From Dehalococcoidia bacterium (GTDB taxonomy: Bacteria > Chloroflexota > Dehalococcoidia > Bin125): a stretch of 64,000 nt of DNA. The stretch is from positions 352,001 through 416,000 of the forward strand of contig CAXXNO010000012.1 of the NCBI GenBank assembly GCA_963663235.2, given 5' to 3'. The first letter of the stretch is position 1; each line of letters opens with the position of its first letter. This document shows, one piece after another, positions 922 to 23,221 of the stretch. The notes below the pieces were generated by a model. That model was given only the letters and a program-made list of their open reading frames with translations, was not told the DNA's origin and did not search any database. Both the position numbers and the translations under genes were made by a program.

Positions 922-934
922 CCAGACCCGGCCC

Positions 935-5335: not shown

Positions 5336-5364
5336 TTGACAACCCGCGCTTCGCGTGTCACACT
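5336..5364 (+). promoter_or_regulatory. Sigma70-type promoter upstream of terminase genes
   Basis: TTGACA (5336-5341), N17, then CACACT (5359-5364) preceded by TG (extended -10). Confidence 0.6.
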
Positions 5365-5371
5365 GGACCCC

Positions 5372-6082
5372 TTGGACAGAGCGCATGTTCTCACAGATGG
5401 CCTGCCCGACAAACGCCCCGGCTCCCCTTCGCCCAGCGGAAGAGCCCGTGGTGAGATTGTCGAACCCGCCCGGCCCGTCCTTCGCGGAGCGGAAGGACCC
5501 GACCCGGCCATCGCCGTCCGCCTCGATCAGGTCGAGTCCCTCCACCACCGCGGCTGGAGTCACCGCCGCATCGCCGCCGACCTCGCCGTCTCCGAGCGCA
5601 CCGTCCGCCGCGACCTCCGCCGCCTCGAGGCCCTCTGGCTGGACCGCCTCGCCCAACGCGTCGCCCACGAGCGCGCCCACTCCATCGGCGTCTACCGCGA
5701 GGTCCAGTCCCTCATGTGGAAGGTGATCGACCGTATGTCCGACGCCGACGACCACAAGTCCATCGCCGCCGCCGCCCGCACCATCGTCGCCGCCGCCCGC
5801 GACGGCAAATCCTCCGTCCGCGACCTCTTCGCGGAGTTCACCGACGCCGAGCTCGACGGCACCGACGACCCCTTCGCTGCTCTCGCCCAGGGCGACGAAA
5901 ACTCCCCCTCCCACGCCGCCCTCGACTTCGACGACGATCCGGACAGCGAAGAGCCCGTCCTGAGCGAAGCCCGCACTGAGCTAAGTCGAAGGGTCGAAGG
6001 GCCTGAAACCCCTGCAGATCCCGACGCTTTCAGCGATCCCGACCCTGTCCGCACCCCTGACCGCTCCCCGTCCCAAGCGTGA
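5372..6082 (+). CDS. HTH protein, probable terminase small subunit (start uncertain)
   Basis: HTH WSHRRIAADLAVSERTVRRDL; GTGA overlap with terL; the ORF-track start at 5336 is probably the -35 box. Confidence 0.65.
   Translation: MDRAHVLTDGLPDKRPGSPSPSGRARGEIVEPARPVLRGAEGPDPAIAVRLDQVESLHHRGWSHRRIAADLAVSERTVRRDLRRLEALWLDRLAQRVAHERAHSIGVYREVQSLMWKVIDRMSDADDHKSIAAAARTIVAAARDGKSSVRDLFAEFTDAELDGTDDPFAALAQGDENSPSHAALDFDDDPDSEEPVLSEARTELSRRVEGPETPADPDAFSDPDPVRTPDRSPSQA
5378..5391. promoter_or_regulatory. Putative LexA (SOS) box
   Basis: AGAGC-GCAT-GTTCT, one mismatch to AGAAC-N4-GTTCT, just downstream of the promoter. Confidence 0.55.
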
Positions 6083-7461
6083 CCATCCCTGTCCAATCCG
6101 GTCCGGCCGGACAGCGCCCCCACCGCCTCATCCTCGCCCGCCGCTGGCGCCGCGACCCCGTCGCCTTCGCCCGAGAGGCGCTCGATGTGGATCTCTGGGA
6201 CACCCAGCAGGCCATCGCCCGCGCCGTCCGCGACCATCCCCGCGTCGCCTGTCGCTCCTGCCACGCCGCCGGCAAGACCTTCCTCGCCGCCGCCGTCGTG
6301 CTCTGGTTCCTCTACACCCGCCCCGGCGCCCAGGTGCTCACCACCGCCTCCACCTTCCGCCAGGTCCGCTACGTCCTCTGGCGCACCATCCAAAAGCTCT
6401 TCCACGGTGCCAAGAGCCACCTCCAGGGCGATCTCTTCGAAACCGAACTCCGCCTCGGCCCCAACTGGTACGCCCTCGGCCTCAGCACAGACAACCCCGA
6501 GCGCTTCCAGGGCTTCCACGCCCCCCACGTCCTGGTCCTGGTCGATGAGCCCGGCGCCGTCCCGCCACCCGTCTTTGCCGCCATCGAAGGCGTCCTCGCC
6601 TCCGGCTACACCCGCCTGCTGATGATCGGCAACCCCACCCAATCCAGCGGCCCCTTCTACGACGCCTTCCACAACGATGCCGCCGAGTACCGCACCTTCT
6701 GCATCAGCGCCTTCGACACCCCCAACCTGCGCGAGGGCCACACCGTCCGCCCCTACCTCGTCGCCCCCGATTGGGTCGACCAACGTCGCCGCCTCTGGGG
6801 CGAAGATTCCGACCTCTACCGCTCCCGCGTCCTCGCCGAGTTCCCCCGCGCCGCCGCCGGCCAACTCTTCTCCCTCGCCCTCCTCGACGCCGCCCTCGTC
6901 GACGCCCCACCCGGCATGAGCCGGGTGGCACTAGGAATTGACGTCGCCCGCTTCGGCTCCGACGCCACCGCCCTAAGCCGCATCGAAGACGGCGGCCTCC
7001 GCCACCAGCAGCTCCTCCACGGCCTCGACACCATGGCGGTCACCGGCCATGTCGCCGCCGCCCTCGCGCAGCGGCCCGACCTCCTCCTCGCCGTCGACGA
7101 CACCGGGGTCGGCGGCGGCGTCACCGACCGCCTGCGCGAGCAGGGCTGGGAGCCGCTCGCCGTCAACTTCGGCGCCGCGGCCTCCGAGCGGGCCTACTAC
7201 GCCAACCGCGGCAGCGAGATCTACGCCCGCCTGGCCGCCGCCCTGCGCGACGGCCGCCTCGCCATCGACGCCGCCCTCCCCACCCGCGACACCCTCTTCG
7301 GCCAGCTCGCCCAGGTGCGCGTCGAATACCGCAGCGACGGCCGGCAGCGCGTGCGCAAGCGCGGCCCCGCCGACGCGCAGCCCAGCCCAGACCTCGCCGA
7401 CTCACTGGCCCTCGCTTGGGCCGCCTACGAAGAAGGCACGCAAGGAGCAGGAGTATGGTGA
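6079..7461 (+). CDS. Phage terminase large subunit
   Basis: Walker A CHAAGKT, Walker B VLVDEP, motif III IGNP, nuclease GIDVARFGSD and SPDLADSLALA. Confidence 0.92.
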   Translation: MTIPVQSGPAGQRPHRLILARRWRRDPVAFAREALDVDLWDTQQAIARAVRDHPRVACRSCHAAGKTFLAAAVVLWFLYTRPGAQVLTTASTFRQVRYVLWRTIQKLFHGAKSHLQGDLFETELRLGPNWYALGLSTDNPERFQGFHAPHVLVLVDEPGAVPPPVFAAIEGVLASGYTRLLMIGNPTQSSGPFYDAFHNDAAEYRTFCISAFDTPNLREGHTVRPYLVAPDWVDQRRRLWGEDSDLYRSRVLAEFPRAAAGQLFSLALLDAALVDAPPGMSRVALGIDVARFGSDATALSRIEDGGLRHQQLLHGLDTMAVTGHVAAALAQRPDLLLAVDDTGVGGGVTDRLREQGWEPLAVNFGAAASERAYYANRGSEIYARLAAALRDGRLAIDAALPTRDTLFGQLAQVRVEYRSDGRQRVRKRGPADAQPSPDLADSLALAWAAYEEGTQGAGVW

Positions 7462-7730
7462 CCGATCACACCGCCGCCACTTCCGTTCGTCCTGAGCCTG
7501 TCGAAGGGCGAACCATCACCCCACCCGCGCAGCCCCTCGACCGCCCCATCTGCCCCCGCTGCCGCAAGCCCGCCGGCCTCCTGCTCGAGCGGCCCGCCCC
7601 CGCCGACTACAACCCGGTATTTCGCTGTAATGGGCGACGAGGCGGATGTGGATACCTCTGGAGTCCGAAGCAGGTCCCGCACCATCCACCCCGCGTCTCC
7701 GGGCGCGGCCCCGCAACCGCGGACGGCTAA
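7455..7730 (+). CDS. Small zinc-ribbon protein
   Basis: ATG overlapping the terL end after AGGAG; CPRC-x21-C-x6-CGYLW. Confidence 0.6.
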   Translation: MVTDHTAATSVRPEPVEGRTITPPAQPLDRPICPRCRKPAGLLLERPAPADYNPVFRCNGRRGGCGYLWSPKQVPHHPPRVSGRGPATADG

Positions 7731-7760
7731 CGGGCAGCGCCGCGATCTGCGAAGAGAAAC

Positions 7761-8930
7761 CTAGGCGTGGGCGCTCTCCGCCGTCGGCGCCTCTACCAGT
7801 CGCAGCAACTCCCGCGCCACGTACAACCGCGGCCAAGAGTCCGGCACCGTCTCGACGATCCCCGCATCCACCAGCCGCTCCAAGATCCGGCGGGCCCCGG
7901 CGTTGCTCAGCCCCAGCCGCGACGCCGTCCCCGGCGCCGATGCGAACGGCCGCACGAACAATTCGTCCAGCAACTGCATCGCGTTCGCCGACTCCCGACG
8001 CTCCTGCAGCCGTTCACGATACCGCTCGTACACCTCCCGCACCCCGCGCGACCGCGCCAGCGCGTCCTTCGCCTGCTCGGCCACGCCCTCAAGGAAGAAG
8101 CGCAGCCACGGCGTCCAGTCGCCCGTCGCGCTCACGCTGAGCAGATGGTCGTAGTACGCCTGCCGCCGCCGCTCGAAGTACGCGCTGAGGTACAGCAACG
8201 GTGTCGTCAAGACCCCCTTCGCGATCAAGTACAGCGTGATCAATGCTCGCCCGATGCGACCGTTGCCGTCCTCGAACGGATGGATCGCCTCGAACTGGTA
8301 GTGCATCAGCGCGCACGCCACCAGCGGCGGCAGCCGCTCCGCCTCGTTCACAAAACGTTCCCAGTCGCTCATCAACGCTGGCAACTCCGTGTGTGGCGCC
8401 GGCACGAACCGCGCATTTTGGATCGGCGTCCCCTCGGGCGCGATCCACACCTGATGGGGCCGCCATTCGCCCGGCCTTTTCTCCTCCCCACGCACGCCCC
8501 GCAGCAACTCCGCGTGCATCTCGCGCACCAGCCGGTTGCAGATCGGCAGGCTCTCCAGCAACTCCTGACCCCGCTCGACCGCCCGCACGTAGTTCGCCAC
8601 CTCCCGCGCGTCACCCTGATCCTTCCGCTCCCCCGACGCCTCAAACAGATACAGGTCGGACAGCGACGCCTGCGTCCCCTCGATCCGCGACGACAGCACC
8701 GCCTCCCGGTGCAGGAACGGCCGGATGAGCAGGTGCGGGTTCACCAGCGTCTCCCCTACCCCCGACAGCATCGCCACCGCCCGCGACGCCTCGTCCAGCG
8801 GCAGGATCAATTCGCGGTCGATCTCCAGATCCTGGGGGAGAGGGGCCGGCACGAAAGCCTGCTGCCCCTCGACCGTCGGGACCAACCGTCCAACAGGGCT
8901 ATCTCGGAATTGCGCAGCGTCCACGGTCAA
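7761..8930 (-). CDS. Fic family protein (class II-like, C-terminal HTH)
   Basis: HPFEDGNGRIGR catalytic motif; SSRIEG inhibitory motif. Confidence 0.92.
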   Translation of the reverse strand: MTVDAAQFRDSPVGRLVPTVEGQQAFVPAPLPQDLEIDRELILPLDEASRAVAMLSGVGETLVNPHLLIRPFLHREAVLSSRIEGTQASLSDLYLFEASGERKDQGDAREVANYVRAVERGQELLESLPICNRLVREMHAELLRGVRGEEKRPGEWRPHQVWIAPEGTPIQNARFVPAPHTELPALMSDWERFVNEAERLPPLVACALMHYQFEAIHPFEDGNGRIGRALITLYLIAKGVLTTPLLYLSAYFERRRQAYYDHLLSVSATGDWTPWLRFFLEGVAEQAKDALARSRGVREVYERYRERLQERRESANAMQLLDELFVRPFASAPGTASRLGLSNAGARRILERLVDAGIVETVPDSWPRLYVARELLRLVEAPTAESAHA

Positions 8931-9045
8931 CTCGAAACGCCAGTTTTACTTTCCCGCCAATTAGAAACTATCACGCAAACTAGTATCAACTATCAACGCT
9001 CTGGAAACCCGCGTATCACTCTGCCGCCCGCTCCCGCCCCTCCCC

Positions 9046-9075
9046 TTGACATCAGACACGCTTTACGCGTACTCT
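9046..9075 (+). promoter_or_regulatory. Sigma70-type promoter upstream of portal
   Basis: TTGACA (9046-9051), N18, TACTCT (9070-9075). Confidence 0.65.
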
Positions 9076-9081
9076 AGTTCT
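9068..9081. promoter_or_regulatory. Putative LexA (SOS) box overlapping the -10 element
   Basis: CGTAC-TCTA-GTTCT; core GTAC-N4-GTTC is one mismatch from GAAC-N4-GTTC. Confidence 0.5.
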
Positions 9082-9148
9082 AGTTTCAGGGACTCACCCC
9101 GACCAACGACCACGCACTGACGGAATTCTGCGGGACTGACCCCTCGGG

Positions 9149-10678
9149 ATGCCCATGCCGCTCCTCGAGACGGGCAGCCTCGCGCTCATCCCCTCTTGGC
9201 AGGTGGGCGTCGAGCAGTACCCCGCGGTCGACTTCCCCAAACTCGCCCGCGAGGGCTACCGGCAGAACGAGGTCGTCTACGCCTGCATCCGGGAGATCGC
9301 CACCACCGCCGCGGAGGTCCGCCTCCGGCTCCAGGACCGGGACGGCGCTCCCCTCCTCGACCACCCCCTCCAGCGCCTCCTCGAGCATCCCAACCCCCAG
9401 CAGTCCGCCTTCGAGCTCTGGGAAAGCCTCCTCACCGATCTCCAGGTCTTTGGCAACGCCTTCCTCTTCAAGGAGCACGACCCCGTCGTCTCTCTGGACC
9501 CGGACCGCGGCTTCGACGCGCTGGCGCCCAACGCTTCCGTGGGGAGCATCTGGAAGCTCCGGCCCGACCGCATCACCATCGTCCCCGGCGACCGTCGCCT
9601 CGTCGACGCCTACATCCACCGCGTCGGCGAGCGCGAGACCCGCCTCGACCCCGCCGACGTCATCCACTTCCGGCTCAGCGATCCGCTCAGCGACCTCTGG
9701 GGCCTCTCCCCCCTCGAGGTCGCCGCCCGCCAGATCGACATCGACACCGAGGCCTCCAAGTTCATCGACGCCTTCTTCCGCAACGCCGCCGTCCCCTTCG
9801 GCCTGATCAAGCTCAAGCGCACCCTCCGCGGCGGCGAAGACGAGGCCCGCCGCATCGGCCGGCGCTGGAGCGACCGCTTCCGCGGCCTCCTCGGCCGCTT
9901 CCAGGTCGGCGTCCTCGATGCCGACGCGGAGTTCCAGCGCATCGGCCTCACGCAGGAGGAGATGGCCTTCCCCGAGATCCGCGCCCACACCGAGGCGCGC
10001 ATCTGCGCCGCCTTCCGCGTGCCGCCCATCCTCGTCGGCGTCAAGGTCGGCCTGGACCGCGCCACCTACAGCAATATGGCCGAAGCCCGGCGCCTCTTCT
10101 GGCAAAACACCATGCTCGCCCTCTACCGGCGCGTCGAGAGCAAGCTCGATGCCGACCTCGTCCCCGCCTTCGCCCGGCCCGGCGACTCCCTGTGCGTCCG
10201 CTTCGACTTCAGCGACGTCGCCGCCCTGCGCGAGTCGCGCGAGAGCCTGGAGCGCTCCGCCATCGCCGGGCTGCGCGCCGGGGCGCTCACCATCAACGAC
10301 GCCCGCCGCCGCTTCGGCTTGGAGCCCCTCCCCGACGGTGACGCGCTCTTCCACTCCGTTCGTTCTGAGCCCGTCGAAGGACGAACGGAGTGGAAGAGCG
10401 CGGCCTTCCGCTCCGGCCGGAGACCCTCGCCCCTCGCAACGGAGGACGGCCGTGACCCGCATCACCGGCTACGCCGCCGTCTTCGGTCGCGCCGACAGCC
10501 AGGCCGACCGCATCGCCCCCGGCGCTTTCCTCGCCTCCCTCGCCCGACACGCCGGCCGCGTGCCGCTGCTCTGGCAGCACGACATGGCCGAGCCCATCGG
10601 CCGCCTCACCACCATGCGCGAGGACGACATCGGCCTCTGGTTCGACGCCGACCTGTCCGGCAGCCGCCGTGCCCGTGA
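9149..10678 (+). CDS. Phage portal protein, HK97 family (3' end probably aberrant run-on)
   Basis: VVYACIREIA, LLEHPNP, FGNAF, DVIHFR, GLSPLE, ICAAFRVPPILVG, TINDARRRFGLEP. Confidence 0.92.
   Translation: MPMPLLETGSLALIPSWQVGVEQYPAVDFPKLAREGYRQNEVVYACIREIATTAAEVRLRLQDRDGAPLLDHPLQRLLEHPNPQQSAFELWESLLTDLQVFGNAFLFKEHDPVVSLDPDRGFDALAPNASVGSIWKLRPDRITIVPGDRRLVDAYIHRVGERETRLDPADVIHFRLSDPLSDLWGLSPLEVAARQIDIDTEASKFIDAFFRNAAVPFGLIKLKRTLRGGEDEARRIGRRWSDRFRGLLGRFQVGVLDADAEFQRIGLTQEEMAFPEIRAHTEARICAAFRVPPILVGVKVGLDRATYSNMAEARRLFWQNTMLALYRRVESKLDADLVPAFARPGDSLCVRFDFSDVAALRESRESLERSAIAGLRAGALTINDARRRFGLEPLPDGDALFHSVRSEPVEGRTEWKSAAFRSGRRPSPLATEDGRDPHHRLRRRLRSRRQPGRPHRPRRFPRLPRPTRRPRAAALAARHGRAHRPPHHHARGRHRPLVRRRPVRQPPCP
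10342..10402. repeat. 22-bp perfect inverted repeat built around a family-A hairpin core
   Basis: CGCGCTCTTCCACTCCGTTCGT...ACGAACGGAGTGGAAGAGCGCG with TCTGAGCCCGTCGAAGG loop. Confidence 0.85.
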
Positions 10679-10949
10679 CGCCGCCGCCCTTCTCCAGGCC
10701 GGTGCGCTGCGCGAGTGCAGCATCGGCTTCCTCCCCCGCCGCATCGCCTTCGAGCGGCGCGGACAGGAGCGCGTTCGCGTCCTGCAACAGATCGATCTCA
10801 TCGAGATCAGCCTGGTAACTCTCGCGGCCAACCCATTGGCCCGCGTGATCAGCGTCGATGGCGCCTCGCTCGGGCCCGGACCGCCCATTGGCACGAGCGC
10901 ATCCATATGGCGCCGACGGCTCGCCGCCGTCGCCCCCACCCGCGATTAG
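10452..10949 (+). CDS. HK97-family prohead protease
   Basis: GTG after GGAGG; ITGYAAVFG, DRIAPGAF, LLWQHD, CSIGF, LIEISLVTLAANP. Confidence 0.92.
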   Translation: MTRITGYAAVFGRADSQADRIAPGAFLASLARHAGRVPLLWQHDMAEPIGRLTTMREDDIGLWFDADLSGSRRARDAAALLQAGALRECSIGFLPRRIAFERRGQERVRVLQQIDLIEISLVTLAANPLARVISVDGASLGPGPPIGTSASIWRRRLAAVAPTRD

Positions 10950-10966
10950 AAGTAAGGAGTGCTGCT

Positions 10967-12229
10967 TTGCCTACGCTCAATGCGCTACGCGACTAAGCCC
11001 GCAACACGCTGACCGAAGCTCGCGGGCTCTTGGAAACCCACAACGGAGCCGAGACCTCCCTCCCGCCCGAGACCGCCGCCCGTGTCGATGCGCTGATCGC
11101 GCAGGGACGCGAGGAGTGGCAGGCCTATGAGGCCGCCCTGGCCGAGCGCGAACGGCGCTACCAACTCGGCGAGCTGGAGCACGACCTGCAACGCGCGCCC
11201 GCCACCTGGACCGACCCCAACGCCGGCGCCGCGCCCGCCCCCACCGCCGGCCGCGGCGACACGGACGCCATCTATCGCAAGGCGTTCGAGCGCTACATCC
11301 ACCACGGCGAACGCTCCGTGCTGGCCCTCGGCGCCCCCTACATCAAGGCGCTCACCGAGGGCACCGACAGCGAGGGCGGCCACCTGGTGCCCATCGACTG
11401 GCAGGCGCAGATCTTGCAGGCCGTCGGCGCCCGCGCCGGCCTGCGCCGCTTCGTCACCGCCATCCCCACCGGCCGCGACGCCATCGAGTGGCCCACCATC
11501 GAGGGCGCCGATGACATCCACGCCAGCGCGGTGCGCCGCACCTGGGTCGATGAGCAGCCCGCCGAAGGCGCCGCCGACACCGAGCCCACCTTCGGCGCGA
11601 TCCGCATCCCCGTGCACACGGCCATGCTCACCACCAAGGCCAGCCGCAACCTGGTCGAGGACAGCGCCGTCCCCTTCACCACCATCCTCACCAACCTCTT
11701 CGCCGACGAGGTCCGCCTCAGCGACGAAGAGGCGTTCCTCACCGGCGACGGCGTCGCCAAGCCGCTGGGTCTCCTCTCGACCACCGACATCCCCACGGTG
11801 AACAGCGGCAACGCCGCCCTGGTCACCGCCGATGGCCTCCTGGACCTCTTCTACGGCGTCCCCGCCCAGTACCGCGACAACGCCATCTTCGTCATGACCA
11901 GCGCCACTGAGGACGCGGTCCGCAAGCTCAAGGACTCCAACAACCAGTACCTCTGGATCGGCGGCTTCGCCGCCGCCCCGGAGACGCTGCTGGGCCGCCA
12001 GGTGCTCAGCTCGGAGTTCATGCCCGCCGTCGCCGCCAACGCCACTCCCATCGCCTTCGGCGACTTCAGCCGCTACGTCGTGGCGGACCGCGTGGGCTTC
12101 TCCATCCAGCGCATCGACGGCGACCAGCAACTCGCCGAGAAGAACCAGATCGGCTTCGTGGGCCGGCAGCGCGTCGGCGGCCGCGTGGTGCAGTCGCGCG
12201 CCTTCCGCTTCCAGAAGATCGCCGTCTAG
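10967..12229 (+). CDS. Major capsid protein, HK97 fold (in-frame TAA at 10994-10996; intact ORF from TTG 11030)
   Basis: EGGHLVP, EEAFLTGDG..KPLGLL, LKDSNNQYLW, TLLGRQV, IAFGDFSRY, RQRVGG; RBS AAGGAG precedes TTG 10967. Confidence 0.92.
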
Positions 12230-12297
12230 CGCCGCAACCTGATGGCCGCTGTGCACTCGGAGCTTTCCCAAAACCCACGCCTACAGGAGTTGGCAAA

Positions 12298-12711
12298 ATG
12301 ACCATCAAAGAAGCGCTCAAGTACGACACCGGCCAGATCGACCCCGACGCCTACGCCGCCTCGACGGTCAACGGCGCCTGGGTCTCTATGGCCGACTTCA
12401 CCGAGGCCGCCGCCATCGTCGTCGTCGGCGCCATGGCCGCCGGTGCAACGGTGGATGCCAAGCTCCAGCAGGCGAAGGACGCCGCCGGGACCGGCGCAAA
12501 GGGCATCACCGGCAAGGCCATCACCCAGCTCACTCAGGCTGGCGGCGACGGCGATGAGATCGTCACCATTCCGCTCCGGGCCGAAGAGATCGACATCGCC
12601 AACGCCTTCACCCACATCCGCGTCCAGGTCACCACCGCCGTCGCCAACGTCGACTACGGCGCGGTCCTGATCCGCGGCGGCGCCGGCCACCACCCGCAAA
12701 CCAACGCGTAA
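12298..12711 (+). CDS. Phage structural protein after MCP (probable capsid decoration/cement)
   Basis: AGGAG RBS; position after MCP; beta-rich NGAWVSM...DAKLQQAKDAAGTGAK...FTHIRV. Confidence 0.6.
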   Translation: MTIKEALKYDTGQIDPDAYAASTVNGAWVSMADFTEAAAIVVVGAMAAGATVDAKLQQAKDAAGTGAKGITGKAITQLTQAGGDGDEIVTIPLRAEEIDIANAFTHIRVQVTTAVANVDYGAVLIRGGAGHHPQTNA

Positions 12712-12723
12712 CACCTCTTGTTT

Positions 12724-12845: not shown

Positions 12846-12871
12846 GGGCGACTCGCTAGAAGCAACCAGAT

Positions 12872-13390: not shown

Positions 13391-13406
13391 GCGAAGGGAG
13401 CCCTTA

Positions 13407-13742: not shown

Positions 13743-13759
13743 GAAAGCTGAGGCGGAGC

Positions 13760-15282: not shown

Positions 15283-15299
15283 GTGAAAGGAGCTGCATC

Positions 15300-15994: not shown

Positions 15995-16827
15995 AGCCTC
16001 CCCCTCCCCCGCCCCCTCTCCATCGCTCGCCGATGGAGAGGGGGCCGGGGGGTGAGGTTCCCACTGAGCTCGTCGAAGGAGGGCCGGGGGGTGAGGTTCC
16101 CTCTCCTGCCCCGTTCGTCCCGAGCGAAGCCCAAGGGCCTGAAGAACGGCAAGCAACCCCGCCCGATCCCCACACTCCCCCTCTCCATCGCTCGCCGATG
16201 GAGAGGGGGCCGGGGAGTGAGGTTCCCACTGAGCTTGTCGAACGAGCGCCGGGCGGTGAGGTCCCCTCTCCTACTCCGTTCGTCCTGAGCGAAGCCCACG
16301 GGCCTGAAGAACGGCAAGCGACCCCGCCCGATCCCAACACTCCCCCTCTCCATCGCTCGCCGATGGAGAGGGGGCCGGGGGGTGAGGTTCCCACTGAGCT
16401 TGTCGAACTAGCGCCGAGCGGTGAGGTCCTTTCCGCCGCCACCCCCCTCCAGCGCCTCCTCGACCTCGACGCCGGCCGCCTGCCCCCGCTCGTCGTCCGC
16501 GTCGACGGCCGCGACGTGCCCCTGCGCCTGCCGGAGAGCCTCTCCCTGGCCGACACGCTCCGCCTCGGCGATCTGCTCCGCGCTCTCGCCGACCCAGCCG
16601 CCACGCCCCAACGCTTCGACGCCGCGGCGGCGGAAGTCGTCGCCCTGGTCGCGCCCCCTCTCGGCCCGGACGGCCCCACGCCCCTGCCGCCGGGGCAGGC
16701 CCGCCGCCTCGTGGCCTTTTACGCCGCGCACCTCGCCCGCGCCGCCGAGGCGCTGAGCGGAGCGGACGGCATGCTCCCTTTTGCGATGGCGCAGCCGCTG
16801 GCCGCGTCTGCGCCCGGATCGCCATGA
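15847..16827 (+). CDS. Tail assembly chaperone (gpG-like) with in-frame repeat-derived N-terminal extension
   Basis: ATG 15847/15982 after GGAG; core LDLDAGRLPPLVVRVDGRDVPLR from ~16450; slippery site at the end. Confidence 0.65.
   Translation: MKPNASQSRARNPARDARRAGQNNPAAPSCTKPPPPPPNASESPSMKPNQPPPPPPPLHRSPMERGPGGEVPTELVEGGPGGEVPSPAPFVPSEAQGPEERQATPPDPHTPPLHRSPMERGPGSEVPTELVERAPGGEVPSPTPFVLSEAHGPEERQATPPDPNTPPLHRSPMERGPGGEVPTELVELAPSGEVLSAATPLQRLLDLDAGRLPPLVVRVDGRDVPLRLPESLSLADTLRLGDLLRALADPAATPQRFDAAAAEVVALVAPPLGPDGPTPLPPGQARRLVAFYAAHLARAAEALSGADGMLPFAMAQPLAASAPGSP
16012..16430 (+). repeat. Tandem 165-bp composite palindromic units (about 2.5 copies)
   Basis: B copies at 16012, 16177, 16342 interleaved with A-type hairpins. 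Confidence 0.9.
16776..16782 (+). other. -1 programmed frameshift site C CCT TTT (G/GT)
   Basis: X XXY YYZ in the chaperone frame; the -1 frame is open into ORF 16824-17099. Confidence 0.7.
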
Positions 16828-17099
16828 CGTACCACCTCTCACTGCGCACGCAACTGGCGATGCCGATGGCGGAGTGGGCCTGCTACGCCACCCAACTCGC
16901 GCCCCTGGAGGCGGAGCGATCCCTCCGCGACGCGGAAGCGGCGGCGCTGCCCTGGATGGGTTCCGCCGATCGGCGGCGCGCCGTCGGCCGTCTCCACCGC
17001 CTCGCCTTCGCCGACCTCGATGCCGCGGCCCCGCTTCCCATCGACGGGCTCGCGCTTCGTCATCAAGCGGCCCAGCCCTCCAGGAAAGGTCATCGCTGA
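16824..17099 (+). CDS. Tail assembly chaperone gpT-like segment
   Basis: Between chaperone and tape measure; reached by the -1 shift; TGATG overlap with the tape measure. Confidence 0.65.
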   Translation: MTYHLSLRTQLAMPMAEWACYATQLAPLEAERSLRDAEAAALPWMGSADRRRAVGRLHRLAFADLDAAAPLPIDGLALRHQAAQPSRKGHR

Positions 17100-17734
17100 T
17101 GGTCGAAATCGCCGATGCGGTCCTCACCCTCAGCACCGACGACGGCCCGCTGCAGGCCGGTCTGGCCCAGGCGGAGACCTCCATCCGGGATTCCTTGGCG
17201 CGCATGGAAGCCGTCTTGCGCGATGGCGCCCTCAACACCGGCGAGGAGCAGGTGGCCCTGGCCCAGGCCGCGACGGCGCTCGTGGTCCTCACCATCTCGA
17301 TGGCCGGCATCCCCCCGGCGGCGACGACCGCCTCCATCTCGCTCACCAATCTGAGCCGGGCCGCATCGGACTTCGGCGCTGCCGCGACTGTCGCCGCGAC
17401 GCAAGCCCGCCTCGCCGCCCTCACCATCACCGCCGCCTTCGCGCGGGTGCTCGCCAGCGCCAGGGCAGCGCTCGCCGCGCTCAATGCGGCGGCGGCGGCA
17501 CGCGGCGCTGCCGCTCCCGGCCCGGCGACGTCAACCGGTGTGGTCCCGCCCCTCGCCGCGCGCGCCCTACCCCCCGGACGCGCGGCCGCCGCGGCCCGAC
17601 CCCCCCTCGGTCCGCTGGTCGGAACGCTCAACGTCACCGTCGATCGTGAACATCCCCGTGCCATCCAGGCGGGCGTCGAGCGCGCCTTGATCGAGCTCGC
17701 TGAACGCGCCGAGCTCGCGGGAGCGCTGGACTGA
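17099..17734 (+). CDS. Very short tape measure protein (211 aa)
   Basis: Position after G/GT and before Dit; N-term MVEIADAVLTLSTDD..LQAGL; Ala-rich helical; AGGAAAGG RBS. Confidence 0.72.
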   Translation: MVEIADAVLTLSTDDGPLQAGLAQAETSIRDSLARMEAVLRDGALNTGEEQVALAQAATALVVLTISMAGIPPAATTASISLTNLSRAASDFGAAATVAATQARLAALTITAAFARVLASARAALAALNAAAAARGAAAPGPATSTGVVPPLAARALPPGRAAAAARPPLGPLVGTLNVTVDREHPRAIQAGVERALIELAERAELAGALD

Positions 17735-18648
17735 TGACCATCGACTGGACCGCCGCCGACGGCGTCACCGTCAGCCTGGACCGGGACCCCCGCTGGGCGC
17801 TCTTGAGCATAAGCGGGCACGGCGCCCCCGATACCGACCTCCTCACGACCGGCAACCCCGATCGCGATGAGCGCCTCCCGCTCCACGCCGTCGCGCAGCC
17901 GCGACTGCTCTCCCTGACCCTCCGCATCGAAGGCGAATCCCTCACCGCCTACGAAGCCAACCGCGCCGCGCTGGCCGCGGCCTTCGCCCCCTGGCGCGAT
18001 GCGGGCACGCGCAGCCGCCCGGGCGCTCTGGCCCTCACCCTCGCCGACGGCCGCCGCCGCGCGCTGCGCGCCGTGCCCCGGCAGGGGCTGGCCTGGGCGT
18101 CGGGGCGACAGCGCGGCACCCGCACCGTCGAGTCGGTGCTGCTGGAGGCACCCGATCCATTTTGGTACGACCCCACGCCCCGCACCGGCGCGGCCACCAT
18201 CCAGAGCCCCGGCAACCTCCGCTTCGATGCCGTCACCGAGTTGGGCTTCCCCGCCGGCTTCGGCAGCGACCGCCCCAGCGCGGTCGTCACGGTGACCCAC
18301 GAAGGCAGCGTCCGTAGCTTCCCGCTCTTCACCGTGCCCGGCCCCTCCATCAATCCCAGCTTTCGCCTTGGCGCCTCCGGTTTCTCCGTGGCCTTCTCCC
18401 TGACCGTTCCTCAGGGGCTGACGCTCCAGGTCACCTGTGGGGCGCAGCCGGACGGCTCCGTCGACGCCCCCAAGGCCGTCCTCATCGATGACCTCGGCGG
18501 CGAGTCCAACGTCCTCGGGGCGCTCCGCAGCGGTTCCCGCTTCTGGGCGCTCGGGCCCGGTCCGAATACCGTCGTGCTCACCCAGGACACCCCCGCGGTC
18601 GGCACGGTCTTCAACTATCAGTTCTTCCAACGCGAAGTGGCGGTGTAA
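17734..18648 (+). CDS. Distal tail protein (Dit-like)
   Basis: LEAPDPFWY, VTHEGSVRSFP, FWALGPGPNTV; TGATG overlap with the tape measure. Confidence 0.8.
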   Translation: MTIDWTAADGVTVSLDRDPRWALLSISGHGAPDTDLLTTGNPDRDERLPLHAVAQPRLLSLTLRIEGESLTAYEANRAALAAAFAPWRDAGTRSRPGALALTLADGRRRALRAVPRQGLAWASGRQRGTRTVESVLLEAPDPFWYDPTPRTGAATIQSPGNLRFDAVTELGFPAGFGSDRPSAVVTVTHEGSVRSFPLFTVPGPSINPSFRLGASGFSVAFSLTVPQGLTLQVTCGAQPDGSVDAPKAVLIDDLGGESNVLGALRSGSRFWALGPGPNTVVLTQDTPAVGTVFNYQFFQREVAV

Positions 18649-18651
18649 CCC

Positions 18652-19674
18652 ATGGCTGAAGAGAGTTTCCCCTTCCAGGAACTGGCGGACGGCGACCGCA
18701 CCGTGAGCGCGGCGATGTTCGCCAAACACATCGGCATGATCCGCTCGCGCGGCGTGATCAAGTCGGTGGACAACGGCCTGGCCGTCAGTCAGTCCTCACC
18801 GGCGGCGATGAGCGTCGATCTGGACACCGGCGCGGCCTTCGCCGGAGCCACCCAGTTGCGCGCTTACCGCAACACGCTCGCACGCACCATCACCATCGCC
18901 GCCGCCGACCCCACCGACCCTCGCCACGACCTCGTCGTCCTGGACATGAACACGGACACGGGCCCGCCCGACACCCGACGCGTCACCACGATGATCGTCC
19001 AGGGCACGCCCGACCCCTCCCCCTCCGACCCCGCCCTCGTCCAGACCGAGACGCACTATCAACTCGCCCTCGCCCGCGTGCTCGTCGGCGCCGCCGTCGC
19101 CAGCATCGTCGACGCCAACATCACCGACCTCCGCACCTACTCCACCCCGCTCAACGCACCAACCGGCGGCCTCACCCGGGAAGGCGGCAACACCACCGAG
19201 GCGACCACGACCAGCACAAGCGCGGTGGACCTCGTCTCGATCACCAGCCTGAGCGTTGCCACAGGCTCTCCCATCGACGCACGCGGACTTGCCCGCAAGT
19301 CTGGTGGGGCCGCCTCGAATGGCGGCATCGGCCTAAAGATCAACGCGACTGTGGTGTCAGAAGCCAACGCGACAGCAGGTCATGGAGGGGCGGTCTGGAC
19401 AGGAAGCACCAACGCCGACCGAGCGGAAGCAGGGGCCTTCCATGTTGTCGGGTTTGTCGCCCAGACGAATTACGCCTTTACCCCGGCGATCTCGACGTTC
19501 AGCGCTGAGGACACCGTGCCGCAACTCATCTACGCGCAGGTTGATTCTCTTGGCTCAACGGCCGAGTGGCCCGTCGCGACGCTCACCTCGTTCATCTTCC
19601 GCGCGATCAGCGGCAACGCATCGGTCACTGTGGGACTCGATGAAGTCCATCTCTACAGCCTGGCGGTGAGTTAG
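18652..19674 (+). CDS. Minor tail / fibre (receptor-binding) protein
   Basis: Baseplate-anchor-type N-term (MSVDLDTGAA, AADPTDPRHDLVVL, YQLALARVLV, ITDLR) plus beta-rich C-term. Confidence 0.72.
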   Translation: MAEESFPFQELADGDRTVSAAMFAKHIGMIRSRGVIKSVDNGLAVSQSSPAAMSVDLDTGAAFAGATQLRAYRNTLARTITIAAADPTDPRHDLVVLDMNTDTGPPDTRRVTTMIVQGTPDPSPSDPALVQTETHYQLALARVLVGAAVASIVDANITDLRTYSTPLNAPTGGLTREGGNTTEATTTSTSAVDLVSITSLSVATGSPIDARGLARKSGGAASNGGIGLKINATVVSEANATAGHGGAVWTGSTNADRAEAGAFHVVGFVAQTNYAFTPAISTFSAEDTVPQLIYAQVDSLGSTAEWPVATLTSFIFRAISGNASVTVGLDEVHLYSLAVS

Positions 19675-19676
19675 CG

Positions 19677-20147
19677 ATGCTCTACATCTTCGCCGGCTTC
19701 CCACGCTCCGGCCTCAACGCAGGCGGCATCCAGCACCTCATCGAGCGGGTGGAGGAGATGGGCGTGCTGGAGCACAACCCCACGGTCCAGACCACGAAGG
19801 AACACACCGACACCTGCCGCACCGACAAGACGCTGGACGAATACCTGCGCCTTGGTGAGCCCGTCCCACTCGCGGCGCTGCAACTAGTGAAGCAGCGTGT
19901 CCGGCACGAGGGCTGGGAGACATACGAGCAGCGCTGGCGACCGGGGACTTGCCCGCAACAGAGTCACCTCGTCCATCTGACGTGGCTCATCACGGGGCAG
20001 CCACTGCCCGAAGCCGCCTACGAACGCCTCTGCGAGATCATTGAACGCGGCGCGCGACCTGAGCCGCGTGACGCCTACGAAGATAAACACTTCTCCGAGA
20101 TCCGACGCTGGGACGGCAAGCGCTCCCAGGTGCTCGCGGGAGTGTAA
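19677..20147 (+). CDS. Hypothetical protein in the tail module
   Basis: ATG 2 nt after the fibre stop; 156 aa. Confidence 0.55.
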   Translation: MLYIFAGFPRSGLNAGGIQHLIERVEEMGVLEHNPTVQTTKEHTDTCRTDKTLDEYLRLGEPVPLAALQLVKQRVRHEGWETYEQRWRPGTCPQQSHLVHLTWLITGQPLPEAAYERLCEIIERGARPEPRDAYEDKHFSEIRRWDGKRSQVLAGV

Positions 20148-20190
20148 GCGTGCCCACCCCCGAACAGGCCATCATCAGAGAGAGTCAGCC

Positions 20191-20466
20191 ATGCCCCGCA
20201 ACTTCCGCCAGATCAGCACCGGCAGGTACCTCGCCCGCTTCGACGACCTTCAAACCATGACGCCGGCCGGCCACCTCGCCCACGTCGCCGCCGAGTACGG
20301 CACCCCCGCCGCCGACCTCGAACTCATCGAGACCGCCGTCGACCTCCGCGACCCCGTCCTCATGATCAGCCCGCCCCCGCCCGATCCCGCAACGCTGCCC
20401 GACCCACAGGAGCAGGACTTCACCCCGCAGGAACGCAAGCGAATCCGCACCGCCCTGCAGATCTAA
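20191..20466 (+). CDS. Hypothetical protein (possible fibre chaperone)
   Basis: ATG after GAGAG; host-like codon usage; 91 aa. Confidence 0.55.
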   Translation: MPRNFRQISTGRYLARFDDLQTMTPAGHLAHVAAEYGTPAADLELIETAVDLRDPVLMISPPPPDPATLPDPQEQDFTPQERKRIRTALQI

Positions 20467-20517
20467 CGAGAAGCGTGACCGCCGTTCTTCAATCTCACGA
20501 CGCCTAGGTCGCCAGCG

Positions 20518-21645
20518 ATGCCGAACCACGAGATCGTGCTCTTCCACCGCAGTCCCGCCCAGGAGATTCGGGCCATCCCGCCCTTCACCGCCCTGGACTG
20601 GACCCGGCGCTTCCGCGGCAGCGGCGCCTTCCGCGTCGAGATGCCGCTGGAAGCGGGCGCCGCCATCGCCGGCGGCGACGTCCTCGACATCGAGCTCGAC
20701 GGCCGCGTCGATCTCTCCGGCATCGTCCAGCGTCGCACCATCGTCTTCCGCCCCCAGGAGGCGCCCGCCTGGCAATTGGAGGGAATGGATCTGACCTGGT
20801 GGCTGCACCAGCGCGCCATCGTGCCGCCCGGCGGCTCGTCCCACGACGAGCAGATCGGGGTGCCCGCCGAGGACGCCATCCGCCACTACATCGATGCCCA
20901 CCTCCTCAACCCCACCGACGGCGCCCGCAAGATCCCGGTCTCCGCGGCGCTCGAGACGGCCCACAGCCCTCGCCTCGGACCCAACGTCACGATCCGCGCT
21001 CGCTACGCCAAGCTGGCCAAGGAGGTGGACCGCATCGCCGCCCTCGCCGACCTCGGCTACGCCGCCCTCCGCGACGACGCCGGCTCCATCAGCTTCCGCG
21101 TCCTCGCCCAGCGCGACCGCTCGGCCTCTTCGCCCCAGCCGGTGATCTTCTCCCCCAACCTTGGCACGGCAGAGGAGATGACCTTTGTCGAAGACACGGT
21201 CGGCAGCCGCAACGCCGTCTACGTCCTCGGCAGCGGCAGCGGCAGCGGCCGCCTCGTGGAGACCGTGCTCGACGCCGCCGACGTCACCGCCCGCTGGCGC
21301 CGCGAGCTCGCCCTCGACGCCCGCGACGCCACCACCAGCGCCGCCGCCATCGACGCCGGACAGGCCGAGCTCGCCCGTCAGGCCGTCGCCCGCCTGCGGC
21401 TGCACGCCCTCCCGGCCGCCCTCGGCCCGCTGGCCTATCGTCTCGACTGGGATGTCGGCGACCTCGTCACGCTGGACATCCCCGATCTCGCGCTGCGCCT
21501 CGATCGCCGCATCGAGGAAGTGCGCTGCTCCGTTGACGACCGCGAGCCGCTCCGGATCGACCTAGCCTTCGGCGCCCCGGCGCCGGACGCCACCAGCGCG
21601 CTGCGCCGCCTCGATGAGCGCACTGCGCCGGGACGCTTCACTTGA
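20518..21645 (+). CDS. Siphovirus ReqiPepy6 gp37-like minor tail (Tal/hub) protein
   Basis: LDWTRRFRGSGAF, VIFSPNLG, NAVYVLGSG, YRLDWDVGDLVT. Confidence 0.82.
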   Translation: MPNHEIVLFHRSPAQEIRAIPPFTALDWTRRFRGSGAFRVEMPLEAGAAIAGGDVLDIELDGRVDLSGIVQRRTIVFRPQEAPAWQLEGMDLTWWLHQRAIVPPGGSSHDEQIGVPAEDAIRHYIDAHLLNPTDGARKIPVSAALETAHSPRLGPNVTIRARYAKLAKEVDRIAALADLGYAALRDDAGSISFRVLAQRDRSASSPQPVIFSPNLGTAEEMTFVEDTVGSRNAVYVLGSGSGSGRLVETVLDAADVTARWRRELALDARDATTSAAAIDAGQAELARQAVARLRLHALPAALGPLAYRLDWDVGDLVTLDIPDLALRLDRRIEEVRCSVDDREPLRIDLAFGAPAPDATSALRRLDERTAPGRFT

Positions 21646-22067
21646 GCGCCCTGGACGCGGCCGTCCTGACCACCGCCTGCGCCGGGCTGATCACCGCCCT
21701 GGCCCAGTGGTTTCGCCTGTTCGGGCCCCGCCGCAACGGGCGCAAGGCGGTGATCCGCTATTTCGAGGCGCGCCTCGCCGCCACCGAGGCCGCCCTGGCC
21801 GATTGCCTGGAGCGGACCTCTCCCCGTCACCGCACCCAACCCGGCCGCTGGCGCCGGCCCAACCCGTTCGTCCAGAACCCTGTCCTGAGCAGAGTCGAAG
21901 GGCCTGTCCTGAGCTCCCTCGAAGGGCCTGTCCTGAGCACAGTCGAAGGGCTCCGGCCTCTTCCCCCTCTCCATCGCTTGCGACGGAGAGGGGGCCAGGG
22001 GGTGAGGTTCATCTTGAGCATGCACACAACCCGCGCAACGAAAGGAAACTGCGACCATGAACCGTGA
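21642..22067 (+). CDS. Membrane/coiled-coil lysis-module protein with repeat-derived C-terminus
   Basis: N-terminal hydrophobic helix, coiled coil, then PVLSRVEG-like unit x3 from the repeats. Confidence 0.5.
   Translation: MSALDAAVLTTACAGLITALAQWFRLFGPRRNGRKAVIRYFEARLAATEAALADCLERTSPRHRTQPGRWRRPNPFVQNPVLSRVEGPVLSSLEGPVLSTVEGLRPLPPLHRLRRRGGQGVRFILSMHTTRATKGNCDHEP
21864..22008 (+). repeat. Three tandem 24-bp A units plus one B unit
   Basis: CCTGTCCTGAGC-NNNN-TCGAAGGG at 21879, 21903, 21927; B at 21963. Confidence 0.9.
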
Positions 22068-22296
22068 CTTCCCCTGGGGGTTGCCGCCCGGCTCCGTGCG
22101 GGCGCTGCTGGCCGCCATCGTCCTCGCCGTCTGGGCCGCGCTCGATCTGGGCGCCGGGCCGGACGCCGCGGCGCCCGATGCGGTCCGCGCCAGGGCCGCG
22201 GCCGTCGCCGCCGGCTACGGCCTGATGCGCACCCGGGGCGAGAGCGACGCCGCCCGCGCCGCCACACCGTACAGGGGCGAGCACGATGGCCGCTGA
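22057..22296 (+). CDS. Holin-like small membrane protein
   Basis: AAAGGAA RBS; WGLPPGSVRALLAAIVLAVW; upstream of the lysin. Confidence 0.55.
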   Translation: MNRDFPWGLPPGSVRALLAAIVLAVWAALDLGAGPDAAAPDAVRARAAAVAAGYGLMRTRGESDAARAATPYRGEHDGR

Positions 22297-22300
22297 CCCG

Positions 22301-22607
22301 CCGTCCGTCCGTCCTGAGCCTGTCCTGAGCGAAGTCGAAGGGCCTGCCCTGAGCTCCCTCGAAAGGCTGCCGGCCTCTTCCCCCTCTCCGTCCTTCCCGG
22401 GAGGGAAGGATGGAGAGGGGGCCAGGGGGTGAGGTTCGTTCTGACCTCCGCAAAGGGGCTCCCCTGAGCGAAGTCGAAGGGCCGGCCGAAGGACCTGCCA
22501 AACGGCAAGCGGCCCCGCCCGACTCCCACACTCCCCCTCTCCATCGCTCGCCGATGGAGAGGGGCCGGGGGGTGAGGTTCCCCTGAGCAGTGTCGAAGCA
22601 CGAACGG
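22301..22607 (+). repeat. Composite A/B palindrome array between holin and lysin
   Basis: B at 22380 and 22533; A at ~22311, 22319, 22343, 22461, 22580. Confidence 0.85.
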
Positions 22608-22657
22608 CTCATCGCGGCCCGCCCGGCGCCGATCCCGTCCGTCGCTGCCCCCCCCTG

Positions 22658-23221
22658 ATGCGCGAGCTCCGCGACGCCTGGCCTGTCCCCCGGGAGCGGC
22701 CGCCCCTCAGTCTCTGGGCCGCCCTCATCGACACCGAGAGCGGCGGCCGCCCCGACGTCATCAGCGTCGCGGGCGCGGTGGGACTCGGGCAGGTCATGCC
22801 CTCCGACTTCGCCGGCTACTCCGCCCGGCTCCGCCGCATGTTCCGCGACCGCCCCACCACCGCGGCCCTCCTCGACCCGCGCACCAATCTGGAGTGGTCC
22901 TTGCGCATCCTCGTCACCCTGGGCTACCGCCGCTGCCGCTCCTGGCCCGCCGCCCTCATGGCCTACTTCACCGGCCGCTGCGACGCCCCCACCGCCACCG
23001 ACGCCACGGGGACCAGCGGCGCCCACTACGTCCGCCTCATCCTCGCCCGCCAACAGCGCTACCGTGACCTCGACGCGCCCCCGCCGCCGCCCACGGCCGG
23101 CGATTCAGACGTGAGTCGCCGTGTCGATGCCCTTACTGACGACCTGCAACAGCTCCGCGCCCGCGTCGCCCAAAACAACGCCCGCATCCGCGGCATCGGG
23201 AGAGCCGCCGTGGACGGTTGA
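22658..23221 (+). CDS. Lytic transglycosylase (SLT) endolysin
   Basis: ALIDTESGG, AGAVGLGQVMP, LLDPRTNL, ALMAY; C-terminal coiled coil. Confidence 0.85.
   Translation: MRELRDAWPVPRERPPLSLWAALIDTESGGRPDVISVAGAVGLGQVMPSDFAGYSARLRRMFRDRPTTAALLDPRTNLEWSLRILVTLGYRRCRSWPAALMAYFTGRCDAPTATDATGTSGAHYVRLILARQQRYRDLDAPPPPPTAGDSDVSRRVDALTDDLQQLRARVAQNNARIRGIGRAAVDG

Follow-up and report, generated by a model that had tools for sequence, protein, structure and literature searches.

A phage-derived packaging, morphogenesis and lysis locus shared by several genera of Dehalococcoidia: a candidate gene transfer agent

The present analysis concerns a stretch of 64,000 nucleotides from the genome of a Dehalococcoidia bacterium (G000:C12:352001-416000, hereafter referred to as the window) and, within it, a cluster of genes for phage-like DNA packaging, head, tail and lysis functions extending over positions 5372-23221. 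The genome from which the window was taken, G000, comprises 2.75 Mb in 14 contigs at 68.5% GC. Here and below, G codes designate genomes and g codes genera of one Dehalococcoidia family, in which the hosts of the cluster are known as metagenome-assembled genomes. A first annotation of the window, made from its letters alone and referred to as the initial annotation, had proposed that the cluster encodes a domesticated particle resembling a gene transfer agent (GTA) in a Chloroflexota-like host. The host assignment holds, since the near relatives of G000 are metagenome-assembled genomes of Dehalococcoidia within the Chloroflexota. As set out below, comparison with these relatives renders domestication and vertical descent of the cluster well supported.

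Genes and promoters of the cluster

Because spurious open frames abound at this GC content, open reading frames (ORFs) were scored by means of codon usage in the long ORFs of G000, on which the model had been trained, and subsequently submitted to family searches. All ORFs between the host flanks could be accounted for by Pfam and PHROG scans in combination with a reading of the locus. The set of morphogenesis genes named in the initial annotation is recovered by Pfam, PHROG and NCBIfam matches for packaging, head, tail and lysin genes, and nearly all of the cluster is encoded on the plus strand, its sole minus-strand gene being that of a Fic/DOC protein. The cluster follows the codon style of its host neighbours, as had been noted before: its genes have a GC content of 0.80-0.95 at third codon positions (GC3) and score under the host-trained model like those adjoining them. 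The following features were assigned:

5336-5390, plus strand: promoter P1 (-35 TTGACA at 5336-5341, 17-nt spacer, -10 CACACT at 5359-5364)
5379-5390, plus strand: LexA-type box at P1, GAGCGCATGTTC, with one mismatch, just past the probable leaderless start
5372-6082, plus strand: helix-turn-helix (HTH) protein, the probable small terminase (TerS) by gene position, with a stop overlapping the start of TerL
6079-7461, plus strand: large terminase, TerL (phrog_2, E 3.6e-39; 65-69% identity in relatives)
7761-8930, minus strand: Fic/DOC protein with C-terminal winged helix (Fic_N 4.2e-25, Fic 5.7e-20)
9046-9075, plus strand: promoter P2, before the portal gene (-35 TTGACA at 9046-9051, -10 TACTCT at 9070-9075)
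9149-10678, plus strand: portal protein (PF04860, E 1.1e-68; TIGR01537, 5.6e-44)
10452-10949, plus strand: prohead serine protease S78 (PF04586, 1.5e-31; TIGR01543, 2.1e-33; GTG start with GGAGGA upstream)
10967-12229, plus strand: HK97-type major capsid protein with N-terminal delta domain (PF05065, 9.5e-63; TIGR01554, 5.6e-83)
12298-14448, plus strand: five head-tail connector genes (phrog_28483, phrog_16194, PF04883), given singly in the next five lines
12298-12711, plus strand: p137, conserved in five of the five relatives first compared
12872-13390, plus strand: p172, conserved in the same five of five
13407-13742, plus strand: p111a, found in the window alone
13760-14095, plus strand: p111b, conserved in the same five of five
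14092-14448, plus strand: HK97-gp10-like protein (HK97-gp10_like, E 2e-08), otherwise found solely in G005 and G003
14864-15282, plus strand: tail-completion protein, gp17-like (Tail_completion_gp17, PF11367, 6.5e-06)
15300-15857, plus strand: major tail (tube) protein (phrog_2175, 2.2e-14; phrog_117; 73-77% identity in relatives)
16402-16827, plus strand: tail assembly chaperone G, frame matched by homologues from G003, G005, G009 and G020
16824-17099, plus strand: tail assembly chaperone T, frame matched by homologues from the same four genomes
17099-17734, plus strand: tape measure protein of 211 aa, by its position between chaperones and Dit
17734-18648, plus strand: distal tail protein Dit (phrog_5577, 1.9e-18; phrog_33)
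18652-19674, plus strand: fibre-like or tip protein (phrog_1220 and others, residues 1-166)
19677-20147 and 20041-20466, plus strand: two uncertain small ORFs at a strain-variable spot
20518-21645, plus strand: Sipho_Gp37-like tail tip protein (PF14594, 2.2e-46; 59-60% identity in relatives)
21642-22067, plus strand: p141b, holin-like small membrane protein with N-terminal hydrophobic helix and a C-terminal part made of repeats
22057-22296, plus strand: p79, holin-like small membrane protein with one hydrophobic helix in a hydropathy scan
22658-23221, plus strand: SLT lytic transglycosylase, the lysin (PF01464, 5.4e-13; phrog_669, endolysin)

The gene of the S78 protease, situated between those of portal and capsid protein, is overlooked in a plain list of ORFs because the portal frame runs across it. 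The native start of the capsid gene is the TTG at 10967 behind an AAGGAG motif, while the listed open frame begins at 11030. The beginning of the cluster also had to be revised, as position 5336, named in the initial annotation, belongs to the -35 hexamer of P1 and the first gene probably begins with the TTG at 5372. The HTH protein encoded by this gene yields generic HTH matches alone in Pfam, PHROG and a PDB profile search; phrog_7067, a small terminase family, matches three of six of its orthologues with a best E of 0.0015. Its AlphaFold2 (AF2) model consists of an HTH and long helices with a mean pLDDT of 65. A Foldseek search of the PDB with this model returned nothing at E<=0.001, the weak rows being sigma region 4 and the small terminase of phage G20c. 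For TerL, the PDB search gave one match, at E 0.0083.

P1 and P2 were recognised by their conservation; a consensus scan for promoters and terminators covering 4800-24000 detected, as promoter, solely a promoter-like site of the Fic/DOC gene and four terminator-like sites compared to 6.0 expected, and an Rfam search of positions 1-30000 of the window gave no match at gathering score. By eye, both promoters are like those of lexA and recA in their CGCG-rich spacer. Upstream of lexA and recA the SOS box of the host, GAAC-N4-GTTC, occurs in perfect form just past the -10 regions. At P1, orthologous regions lined up by eye reveal a layout common to all genomes compared, in which the promoter is followed by the start codon and then by the box. 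The box is perfect in three of the seven genomes read (G005, G015 and G080) and carries one mismatch in four (G009, G020, G023 and the window). As the N-terminus of the HTH protein is otherwise poorly conserved, it can be argued that the DNA motif itself has been kept, an argument which stays suggestive since the box falls in codons 3-7 of the HTH gene. A promoter-like sequence resembling P2 is present upstream of the portal gene in the four relatives read (G005, G009, G015 and G023). A LexA-like site at 9069-9080, overlapping the -10 of P2, is without conservation in relatives and was treated as chance. The initial annotation had ascribed LexA-like boxes to host-type promoters; the box at P1 is conserved, P2 lacks a conserved one and the window as a whole is not enriched in such sites. 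Judged from these motifs, SOS control of the cluster is plausible.

A second perfect SOS box with conserved sequence lies in host DNA a few kb upstream of Trx9, the left neighbour of the cluster, in eight relatives (G003, G005, G009, G015, G020, G023, G079 and G080), where it presumably serves a host SOS gene. Perfect SOS boxes are missing from the initial 40 kb of the window and from the corresponding stretch of G004.

The gap between the TerL and portal genes (7461-9149 in the window) constitutes a variable cargo island across the relatives. In the window it accommodates the Fic/DOC gene, for which the coding score prefers the minus strand and which is accompanied by the promoter-like site at 8996-8967 (minus strand); the listed plus-strand ORF 7767-9077 is, according to coding score and Pfam, the shadow of this gene. 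Orthologues of the Fic/DOC gene exist in G009, G020, G023 and G079. The island of some g10 genomes contains a second Fic paralogue, DUF6941 proteins and an exonuclease with RNase_T domain, that of G009 a type IIG restriction-modification enzyme of 1031 aa, and that of G080 is almost empty.

As stated in the initial annotation, the tape measure is tiny; tape measures of siphoviruses are usually a few-fold longer than 211 aa. It gave no family match in Pfam or PHROG scans and matches, end to end, proteins of 205 aa in G005 and 215 aa in G003, while the tape measures of genus g10, 101-133 aa in length, match the two ends of the window protein only, which corresponds to an internal deletion. The two chaperone frames may be joined by a -1 slip, for which the heptamer CCCTTTT at 16776 is a candidate site. 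The fibre-like protein is conserved over its N-terminal ~165-200 residues and differs among genera in its C-terminus, the relatives aligning over the first 164-201 residues. Concerning lysis, relatives share a conserved p141b N-terminus, and immediately before the lysin they encode a protein of 77-83 aa in which one or more segments are strongly hydrophobic. The lysin position itself is occupied by an Amidase_2 protein in the relatives (6e-24 in G023), and no SLT homologue is found in their loci.

Shared chromosomal locus, co-divergence and selection

In G000 the cluster is embedded between the following neighbours:

133-921, plus strand: left host flank, thioredoxin-like Trx9 (PF14595, 4.5e-23), present in five of five relatives and in G080
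935-5174, plus strand: insertion with an amidohydrolase, a STAND-type NTPase and a TPR protein (Pfam)
23727-24776, minus strand: right host flank p349, a conserved gene without assigned function, with IMPase and p360 farther on; present in five of five relatives and in G080

The initial annotation had proposed to check whether related genomes carry the cluster in the place it occupies here. Trx9 upstream and p349, IMPase and p360 downstream enclose the cluster in five of five relatives (G005, G009, G015, G020 and G023) and also in G080; in G079 the gene order is the same up to the point where the contig ends inside the cluster. Hence, the flanks are shared by six further genomes and the gene order by a seventh. 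The core genes are uninterrupted in G005, G009, G023 and G080. In relatives the cluster directly abuts Trx9, and homologues of the insertion at 935-5174 occur at none of their loci, the insertion being found in G000 only. p349 is also present in five of the six cluster-less genomes read and was not found in the stretch of G008.

The capsid gene was detected in 9 of the 65 genomes of the family, including that of the window; an order-level genome search comprises the same 65 genomes as the family-level search. Leaving G000 aside, it is present in genera g10 (6/7), g6 (1/1) and g2 (1/3) and absent from g7 (0/37), g8 (0/9), g3 (0/2), g5 (0/3), g4 (0/1) and g9 (0/1). A pattern scan of the genome contigs yielded three loci. 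Outside the family similarity falls off steeply. Among the capsids listed by a search of 5.8 billion proteins, identity drops from 71-99% (20 clusters) to at most 46%, and the best phage records share less than 40% identity for both capsid and TerL. In a class-wide sample of 373 genomes from other families, 13 genomes gave capsid matches, all of them weak with at most 147 bits, compared to 813-884 bits within the family, and a scan of IMG/VR gave two capsids only, with 25% identity. Closest relatives inside complete prophages, which the initial annotation had named as an argument against domestication, were not encountered: the nearest capsids outside the family stay at or below the named 46%, and none of the relatives searched has an integrase at the locus.

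As had been suggested, we compared the tree of the cluster with that of its host, using eight concatenated cluster proteins and four concatenated flank proteins, the flank control therefore comprising four genes only. The cluster tree has a topology identical to that of the flanking host genes. Identities between G000 and G005 amount to 70% for the cluster and 69% for the flanks, between G000 and g10 to 68-69% and 68%, between G005 and g10 to 73-74% and 72-74%, and within g10 to 86-97% and 85-96%. For the G000 branch the figures are 0.349 vs 0.206 in the cluster and 0.438 vs 0.233 in the flanks.

The dN/dS check, likewise suggested in the initial annotation, was done by the Nei-Gojobori method with G009 as reference. 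Within g10 the core genes have dN/dS values of 0.06-0.54 compared to 0.03-0.51 for the flanks; the HTH protein, chaperone T, the tape measure and one small ORF evolve faster (0.42-0.84). The dS values of the cluster match those of the flanks in the comparison of G009 with G015 (0.05-0.25 and 0.09-0.13), G020 (0.20-0.41 and 0.19-0.36) and G000 (0.58-1.43 and 0.71-1.03), with the limitation that dS estimated in this way is unreliable at a GC3 near 0.9 and saturates between genera. These values show the head, tail and lysin genes to be under purifying selection. Taken together, the same locus, co-divergence with the flanks, matching dS and low dN/dS argue for an old, vertically inherited element under selection and not for a recent prophage.

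Nothing indicative of mobility was found at the locus. Neither a tRNA nor a recombinase of the PF00589 or PF00239 families is present in the window. At the locus, PF00589 is absent from six genomes (G000, G005, G009, G015, G020 and G023) and PF00239 from the five searched for it (G000, G005, G009, G015 and G020), so that the initial statement that an integrase is missing is borne out. The same applies to att repeats. The exact-repeat comparison of the two flanks revealed no att-like repeat, exact repeats of at least 13 nt being limited to one 13-mer and one 15-mer; four 13-mers are common to both flanks, compared to a mean of 0.86 and a maximum of 5 in shuffled sequences. The locus therefore lacks what characterises an intact temperate prophage, namely integrase, att sites and modules for lysogeny and replication, and shares with GTAs a set of packaging, head, tail and lysis genes without modules for replication, integration and lysogeny.

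The phylogenetic history can be narrowed down to some extent. In the flank tree all carriers of the cluster, together with g5, are on one side of a well-supported split. In the outgroup-rooted RpoB tree the root falls inside the group of carriers and g5, the relevant node having a support of 0.68. As both trees disagree on the root, an exact count of gains and losses is impossible; under either root, a single gain together with one to three losses is enough.

Relation to known particles and weighing of explanations

The Rhodobacter capsulatus GTA (RcGTA) and the cluster described here are both morphogenesis-only clusters of HK97-type, siphovirus-like character with a fixed place in the chromosome, and their genes are similarly ordered (TerS, TerL, portal, protease, capsid, connectors, tube, two chaperones, short tape measure, Dit, tip proteins). 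The solved structure best matching the capsid protein is RcGTA Rcc01687 (E 5e-38, 134 bits, query residues 72-398) and that best matching the portal protein RcGTA Rcc01684 (E 4.4e-30, 108 bits), both far ahead of HK97 itself, although the similarity of the heads is remote and its strength comparable to that of the best phage matches. The tube, Dit and Gp37-like proteins match no solved chain at E<=0.1. According to the structural report on RcGTA (PMC7296036), structures of its tail and baseplate have been solved; homology to RcGTA is found for head genes and not for tail and baseplate. The same report (PMC7296036) gives the RcGTA tape measure as 216 residues and the tail as 49 nm long, the tape measure of the window having 211 aa. 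No GTA-specific family was matched in Pfam or NCBIfam. Further differences concern the host, RcGTA residing in an alphaproteobacterium and the present cluster in Chloroflexota, and the lysis genes which, unlike in RcGTA, lie inside the cluster. Control would be exerted directly by LexA and not by CtrA/GafA, which reportedly govern RcGTA. Judged from these comparisons, the locus is RcGTA-like on paper and not a member of the RcGTA family.

DNA damage induces PBSX of Bacillus subtilis, a chromosomally fixed, non-propagating phage-like element that packages host DNA and occupies one locus in related species. The cluster resembles it in combining packaging, head, tail and lysis genes at a fixed chromosomal locus. 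PBSX, however, has a contractile tail, its own repressor and a sigma-like activator, whereas the tail encoded here is of the tube/tape measure/Dit type and no match to a sheath or to a dedicated repressor or sigma factor was obtained when all ORFs of the cluster were scanned against Pfam and PHROG, the sole HTH protein being that in the TerS position. BaGTA, VSH-1, Dd1, VTA and the Caulobacter GTA are independently evolved, domesticated tailed-phage particles unable to propagate themselves; they fall in the same functional class, to which the cluster is likened by description and not by sequence. To HK97-like temperate siphoviruses the cluster is linked by its portal, S78 protease and delta-domain capsid protein, which represent the HK97-family equivalogs TIGR01537, TIGR01543 and TIGR01554, and it differs from them by the absence of integrase, repressor, replication and recombination genes and by its vertical inheritance. 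To our knowledge, the known GTA lineages amount to a handful, all found in cultured organisms. Literature searches, at the level of titles and abstracts, brought up no paper claiming a GTA for Chloroflexota.

On balance, we consider it probable that the cluster is a locus of phage origin for morphogenesis, packaging and lysis which was fixed in an ancestor of several genera and has been kept by selection. The most likely cause of the constraint would be a GTA-like or PBSX-like particle function. If so, two host-type promoters would drive the locus, P1 serving the TerS-like and TerL genes and P2 the genes from portal through lysin. DNA damage would lift LexA from the box just past the P1 -10 and thereby switch P1 on. 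Procapsids would be built from portal, S78 protease and delta-domain capsid protein and be filled by the terminase, and since the locus seems unable to excise or replicate, we propose that the packaged DNA would be mostly host DNA. A very short non-contractile tail, as predicted from the tape measure of 211 aa here and of 101-133 aa in one genus, would then be added, and the holin-like protein and the lysin would release particles acting as GTA or as PBSX-like killer particle. The cluster is a good, as yet unproven candidate for a new GTA. Tentatively, one may go further and regard it as an independently domesticated GTA, the first in Chloroflexota, with a direct LexA switch, an RcGTA-like head lineage, a tape measure miniaturised to RcGTA size and shrunk further to 101-133 aa in one genus, and a gap between its operons which would act as landing pad for defence or toxin cargo (Fic/DOC, type IIG restriction-modification, RNase_T exonuclease); this extended proposal is possible, with the odds somewhat against it.

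Several observations weigh against an intact, SOS-controlled particle locus, in addition to the limits of the dS estimates and of the small flank control given above. The TerS identity of the HTH protein, though probable, rests on gene position and is unproven. None of the 43 perfect GAAC-N4-GTTC sites in the 2.75 Mb of the genome lies inside the window, LexA-like sites with at most one mismatch number 15 in the window compared to 18.9 expected, and coding constraint could explain part of the conservation of the P1 box, as it is located in the first HTH codons. No cluster was detected in 56 of the 65 family genomes. G004, whose genus groups with G000 in the RpoB and flank trees, and G002 have unrelated genes between the same flanks. 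G003, 93% complete, has lost TerL, portal and capsid while keeping the tail and lysin half; TerL and capsid are found nowhere in its genome, and its locus consists of a truncated connector, tail genes and an amidase, with Dit in two frames. This locus could be a decaying remnant or an emerging non-contractile tailocin. The portal match of G020 and the Dit match of G015 likewise extend over two frames.

The window's own copy carries lesions, too. An in-frame TAA at 10994-10996 represents codon 10 of the capsid gene, which encodes Arg in relatives. In the gp17-like gene a -1 frameshift is located at ~15077-15079, as homologues match 14864-15079 and then 15079-15276 in another frame. The last codons and the stop of the portal gene are swapped for a hairpin repeat, homology ceasing near 10342, the repeat occupying ~10346-10397 and the frame continuing to 10678; many further hairpin repeats have been inserted into this copy. 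Contigs of the sequencing runs X8 and X9 have an extra G which restores the gp17 frame, while those of X1 and X2 are the same as the window and have, in addition, two extra letters behind 11050. The rpoB gene of G000 (G000:C4:535112-538711) matches its family model in four frames, compared to one frame in all relatives. The assembly thus likely carries indels and single lesions may be assembly errors, and frameshifts are not taken here as general proof of decay, the lesions given being those backed by independent contigs. The copy in the window may nonetheless be impaired, in which case any loss of function would be recent, as the cluster proteins show no extra length of the G000 branch compared to the flank proteins. 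The initial reading as a domesticated GTA-like particle therefore stands insofar as shared locus, tree and dN/dS favour domestication, while the losses and the lesions in the window's copy speak against it.

What has been selected could be something other than DNA transfer, e.g. an SOS-triggered, PBSX-like killer particle or another lysis-linked function with packaging as a by-product. The lysis genes, together with the LexA-type box of P1, are in line with a damage-induced suicidal release, the conserved N-terminus and variable C-terminus of the fibre-like protein are as one would expect for the recognition of target cells, and the tail and lysin genes retained in G003 resemble a non-contractile tailocin. 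However, TerL, portal, protease and capsid are constrained like the tail genes (dN/dS 0.06-0.51 within g10) while a tail-only killer needs none of them, and the G003 remnant, with its Dit in two frames, may reflect mere decay. We therefore deem such an alternative job rather unlikely. An ordinary prophage remnant which decays slowly without a selected function, the alternative already given in the initial annotation, would be in keeping with the losses in several lineages and the half-deleted G003 copy, with the lesions and the repeat invasion in the window and with the exchange of the lysin between genera (SLT and Amidase_2). Neutral decay, however, cannot keep ~15 genes open and in order at dN/dS values of 0.06-0.54 while flank proteins have diverged to 68% identity. 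Moreover, the promoters are conserved as well, and the G000 branch of the cluster is not longer relative to the flanks (see the branch figures above), so that we regard this explanation as quite improbable.

Repeated integration at one site of a temperate phage or satellite that is still mobile by means of an unrecognised recombinase appears most improbable of all. Different hosts can indeed acquire related elements at a shared locus by site-specific integration, and the island between TerL and portal contains unannotated small ORFs in some relatives. Yet, in the genomes searched there is no tyrosine or serine recombinase, an att-like repeat and a tRNA are missing, the cluster borders directly on Trx9 in relatives, dS and tree agree between cluster and flanks, and collections of phages and viral contigs yielded no close relatives.

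Should particles be made, GTA-type gene exchange would be placed in an uncultured, host-associated lineage of Chloroflexota. If the proposal is true, the cluster would be a second example of the RcGTA design, i.e. a morphogenesis-only cluster with a tape measure of ~210 residues, and would inform on how and why phages become domesticated. The comparative series, comprising four intact genomes, a tail-only copy, a clean loss in a sister genus and a polymorphism of lesions within a species, may serve as a natural experiment on keeping and losing such a locus, and the LexA box offers a concrete switch open to testing.

Hairpin repeats and further observations in the window

Hairpin repeats fill five intergenic gaps of the cluster, the larger blocks being the following:

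14470-14815, plus strand: hairpin-repeat block (families D1, D5 and D11) with poor coding score, not a gene
15923-16430, plus strand: duplicate of the tube-gene 3' end (71 nt), followed by three tandem hairpin-repeat units of 165 nt (families D3 and D16)
22303-22620, plus strand: hairpin-repeat block (families D1, D5-D8 and D11)

The first of these blocks accounts for the listed 140-aa ORF at 14445-14867, which is therefore no gene, and 15923-16430 is likewise a repeat block and not a gene. Altogether, hairpin repeats are found at 7481-7511, 10346-10397, 12724-12843, 14470-14815, 15923-16430, 21869-22000 and 22303-22620. They are present in a single orientation and consist of a GC-rich palindrome and two short tail motifs. 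Seven of the 39 hairpin loci of the genome lie inside the 18-kb cluster, which equals a ~30-fold enrichment; other clusters of such repeats are located on contigs C4 (~167 kb), C6 (~126-150 kb), C8 (~25-37 kb), C9 (~2-5 and ~91-101 kb) and C12 (~105-107 kb). Contig depth at the repeats is very high in four of four runs compared. The repeats may be miniature inverted-repeat transposable elements (MITE), terminators or RNA elements. The G003 version of the locus (L063/L064) begins inside the p172 connector gene beside one hairpin repeat.

The two small ORFs at 19677-20147 and 20041-20466 have no family matches and no homologues in relatives. The segment 19820-20040, inside the first of these ORFs, is strain-variable, with 124 nt inserted or a short piece replaced in contigs of runs X2, X8 and X9, and the lowest contig depth occurs at this site.

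Within the insertion at 935-5174, the STAND NTPase gene has a GC3 of 0.74, below that of its neighbours, and the TPR protein gene contains a tandem repeat of 120 nt; the segment may correspond to a defence-type island. Beyond the right end of the cluster, a plus-strand ORF at 23298-25778 (826 aa) was rejected as an antisense shadow by coding score and Pfam. The GC skew of the plus strand is ~-0.25 over positions 1-11000 of the window, ~-0.1 by 13 kb and ~0 past 33 kb. Finally, the head half of the cluster, 9.9 kb in length, is found nearly letter for letter in sequencing runs of nine studies under nine organism labels, and the host species therefore seems widespread among the organisms sampled.

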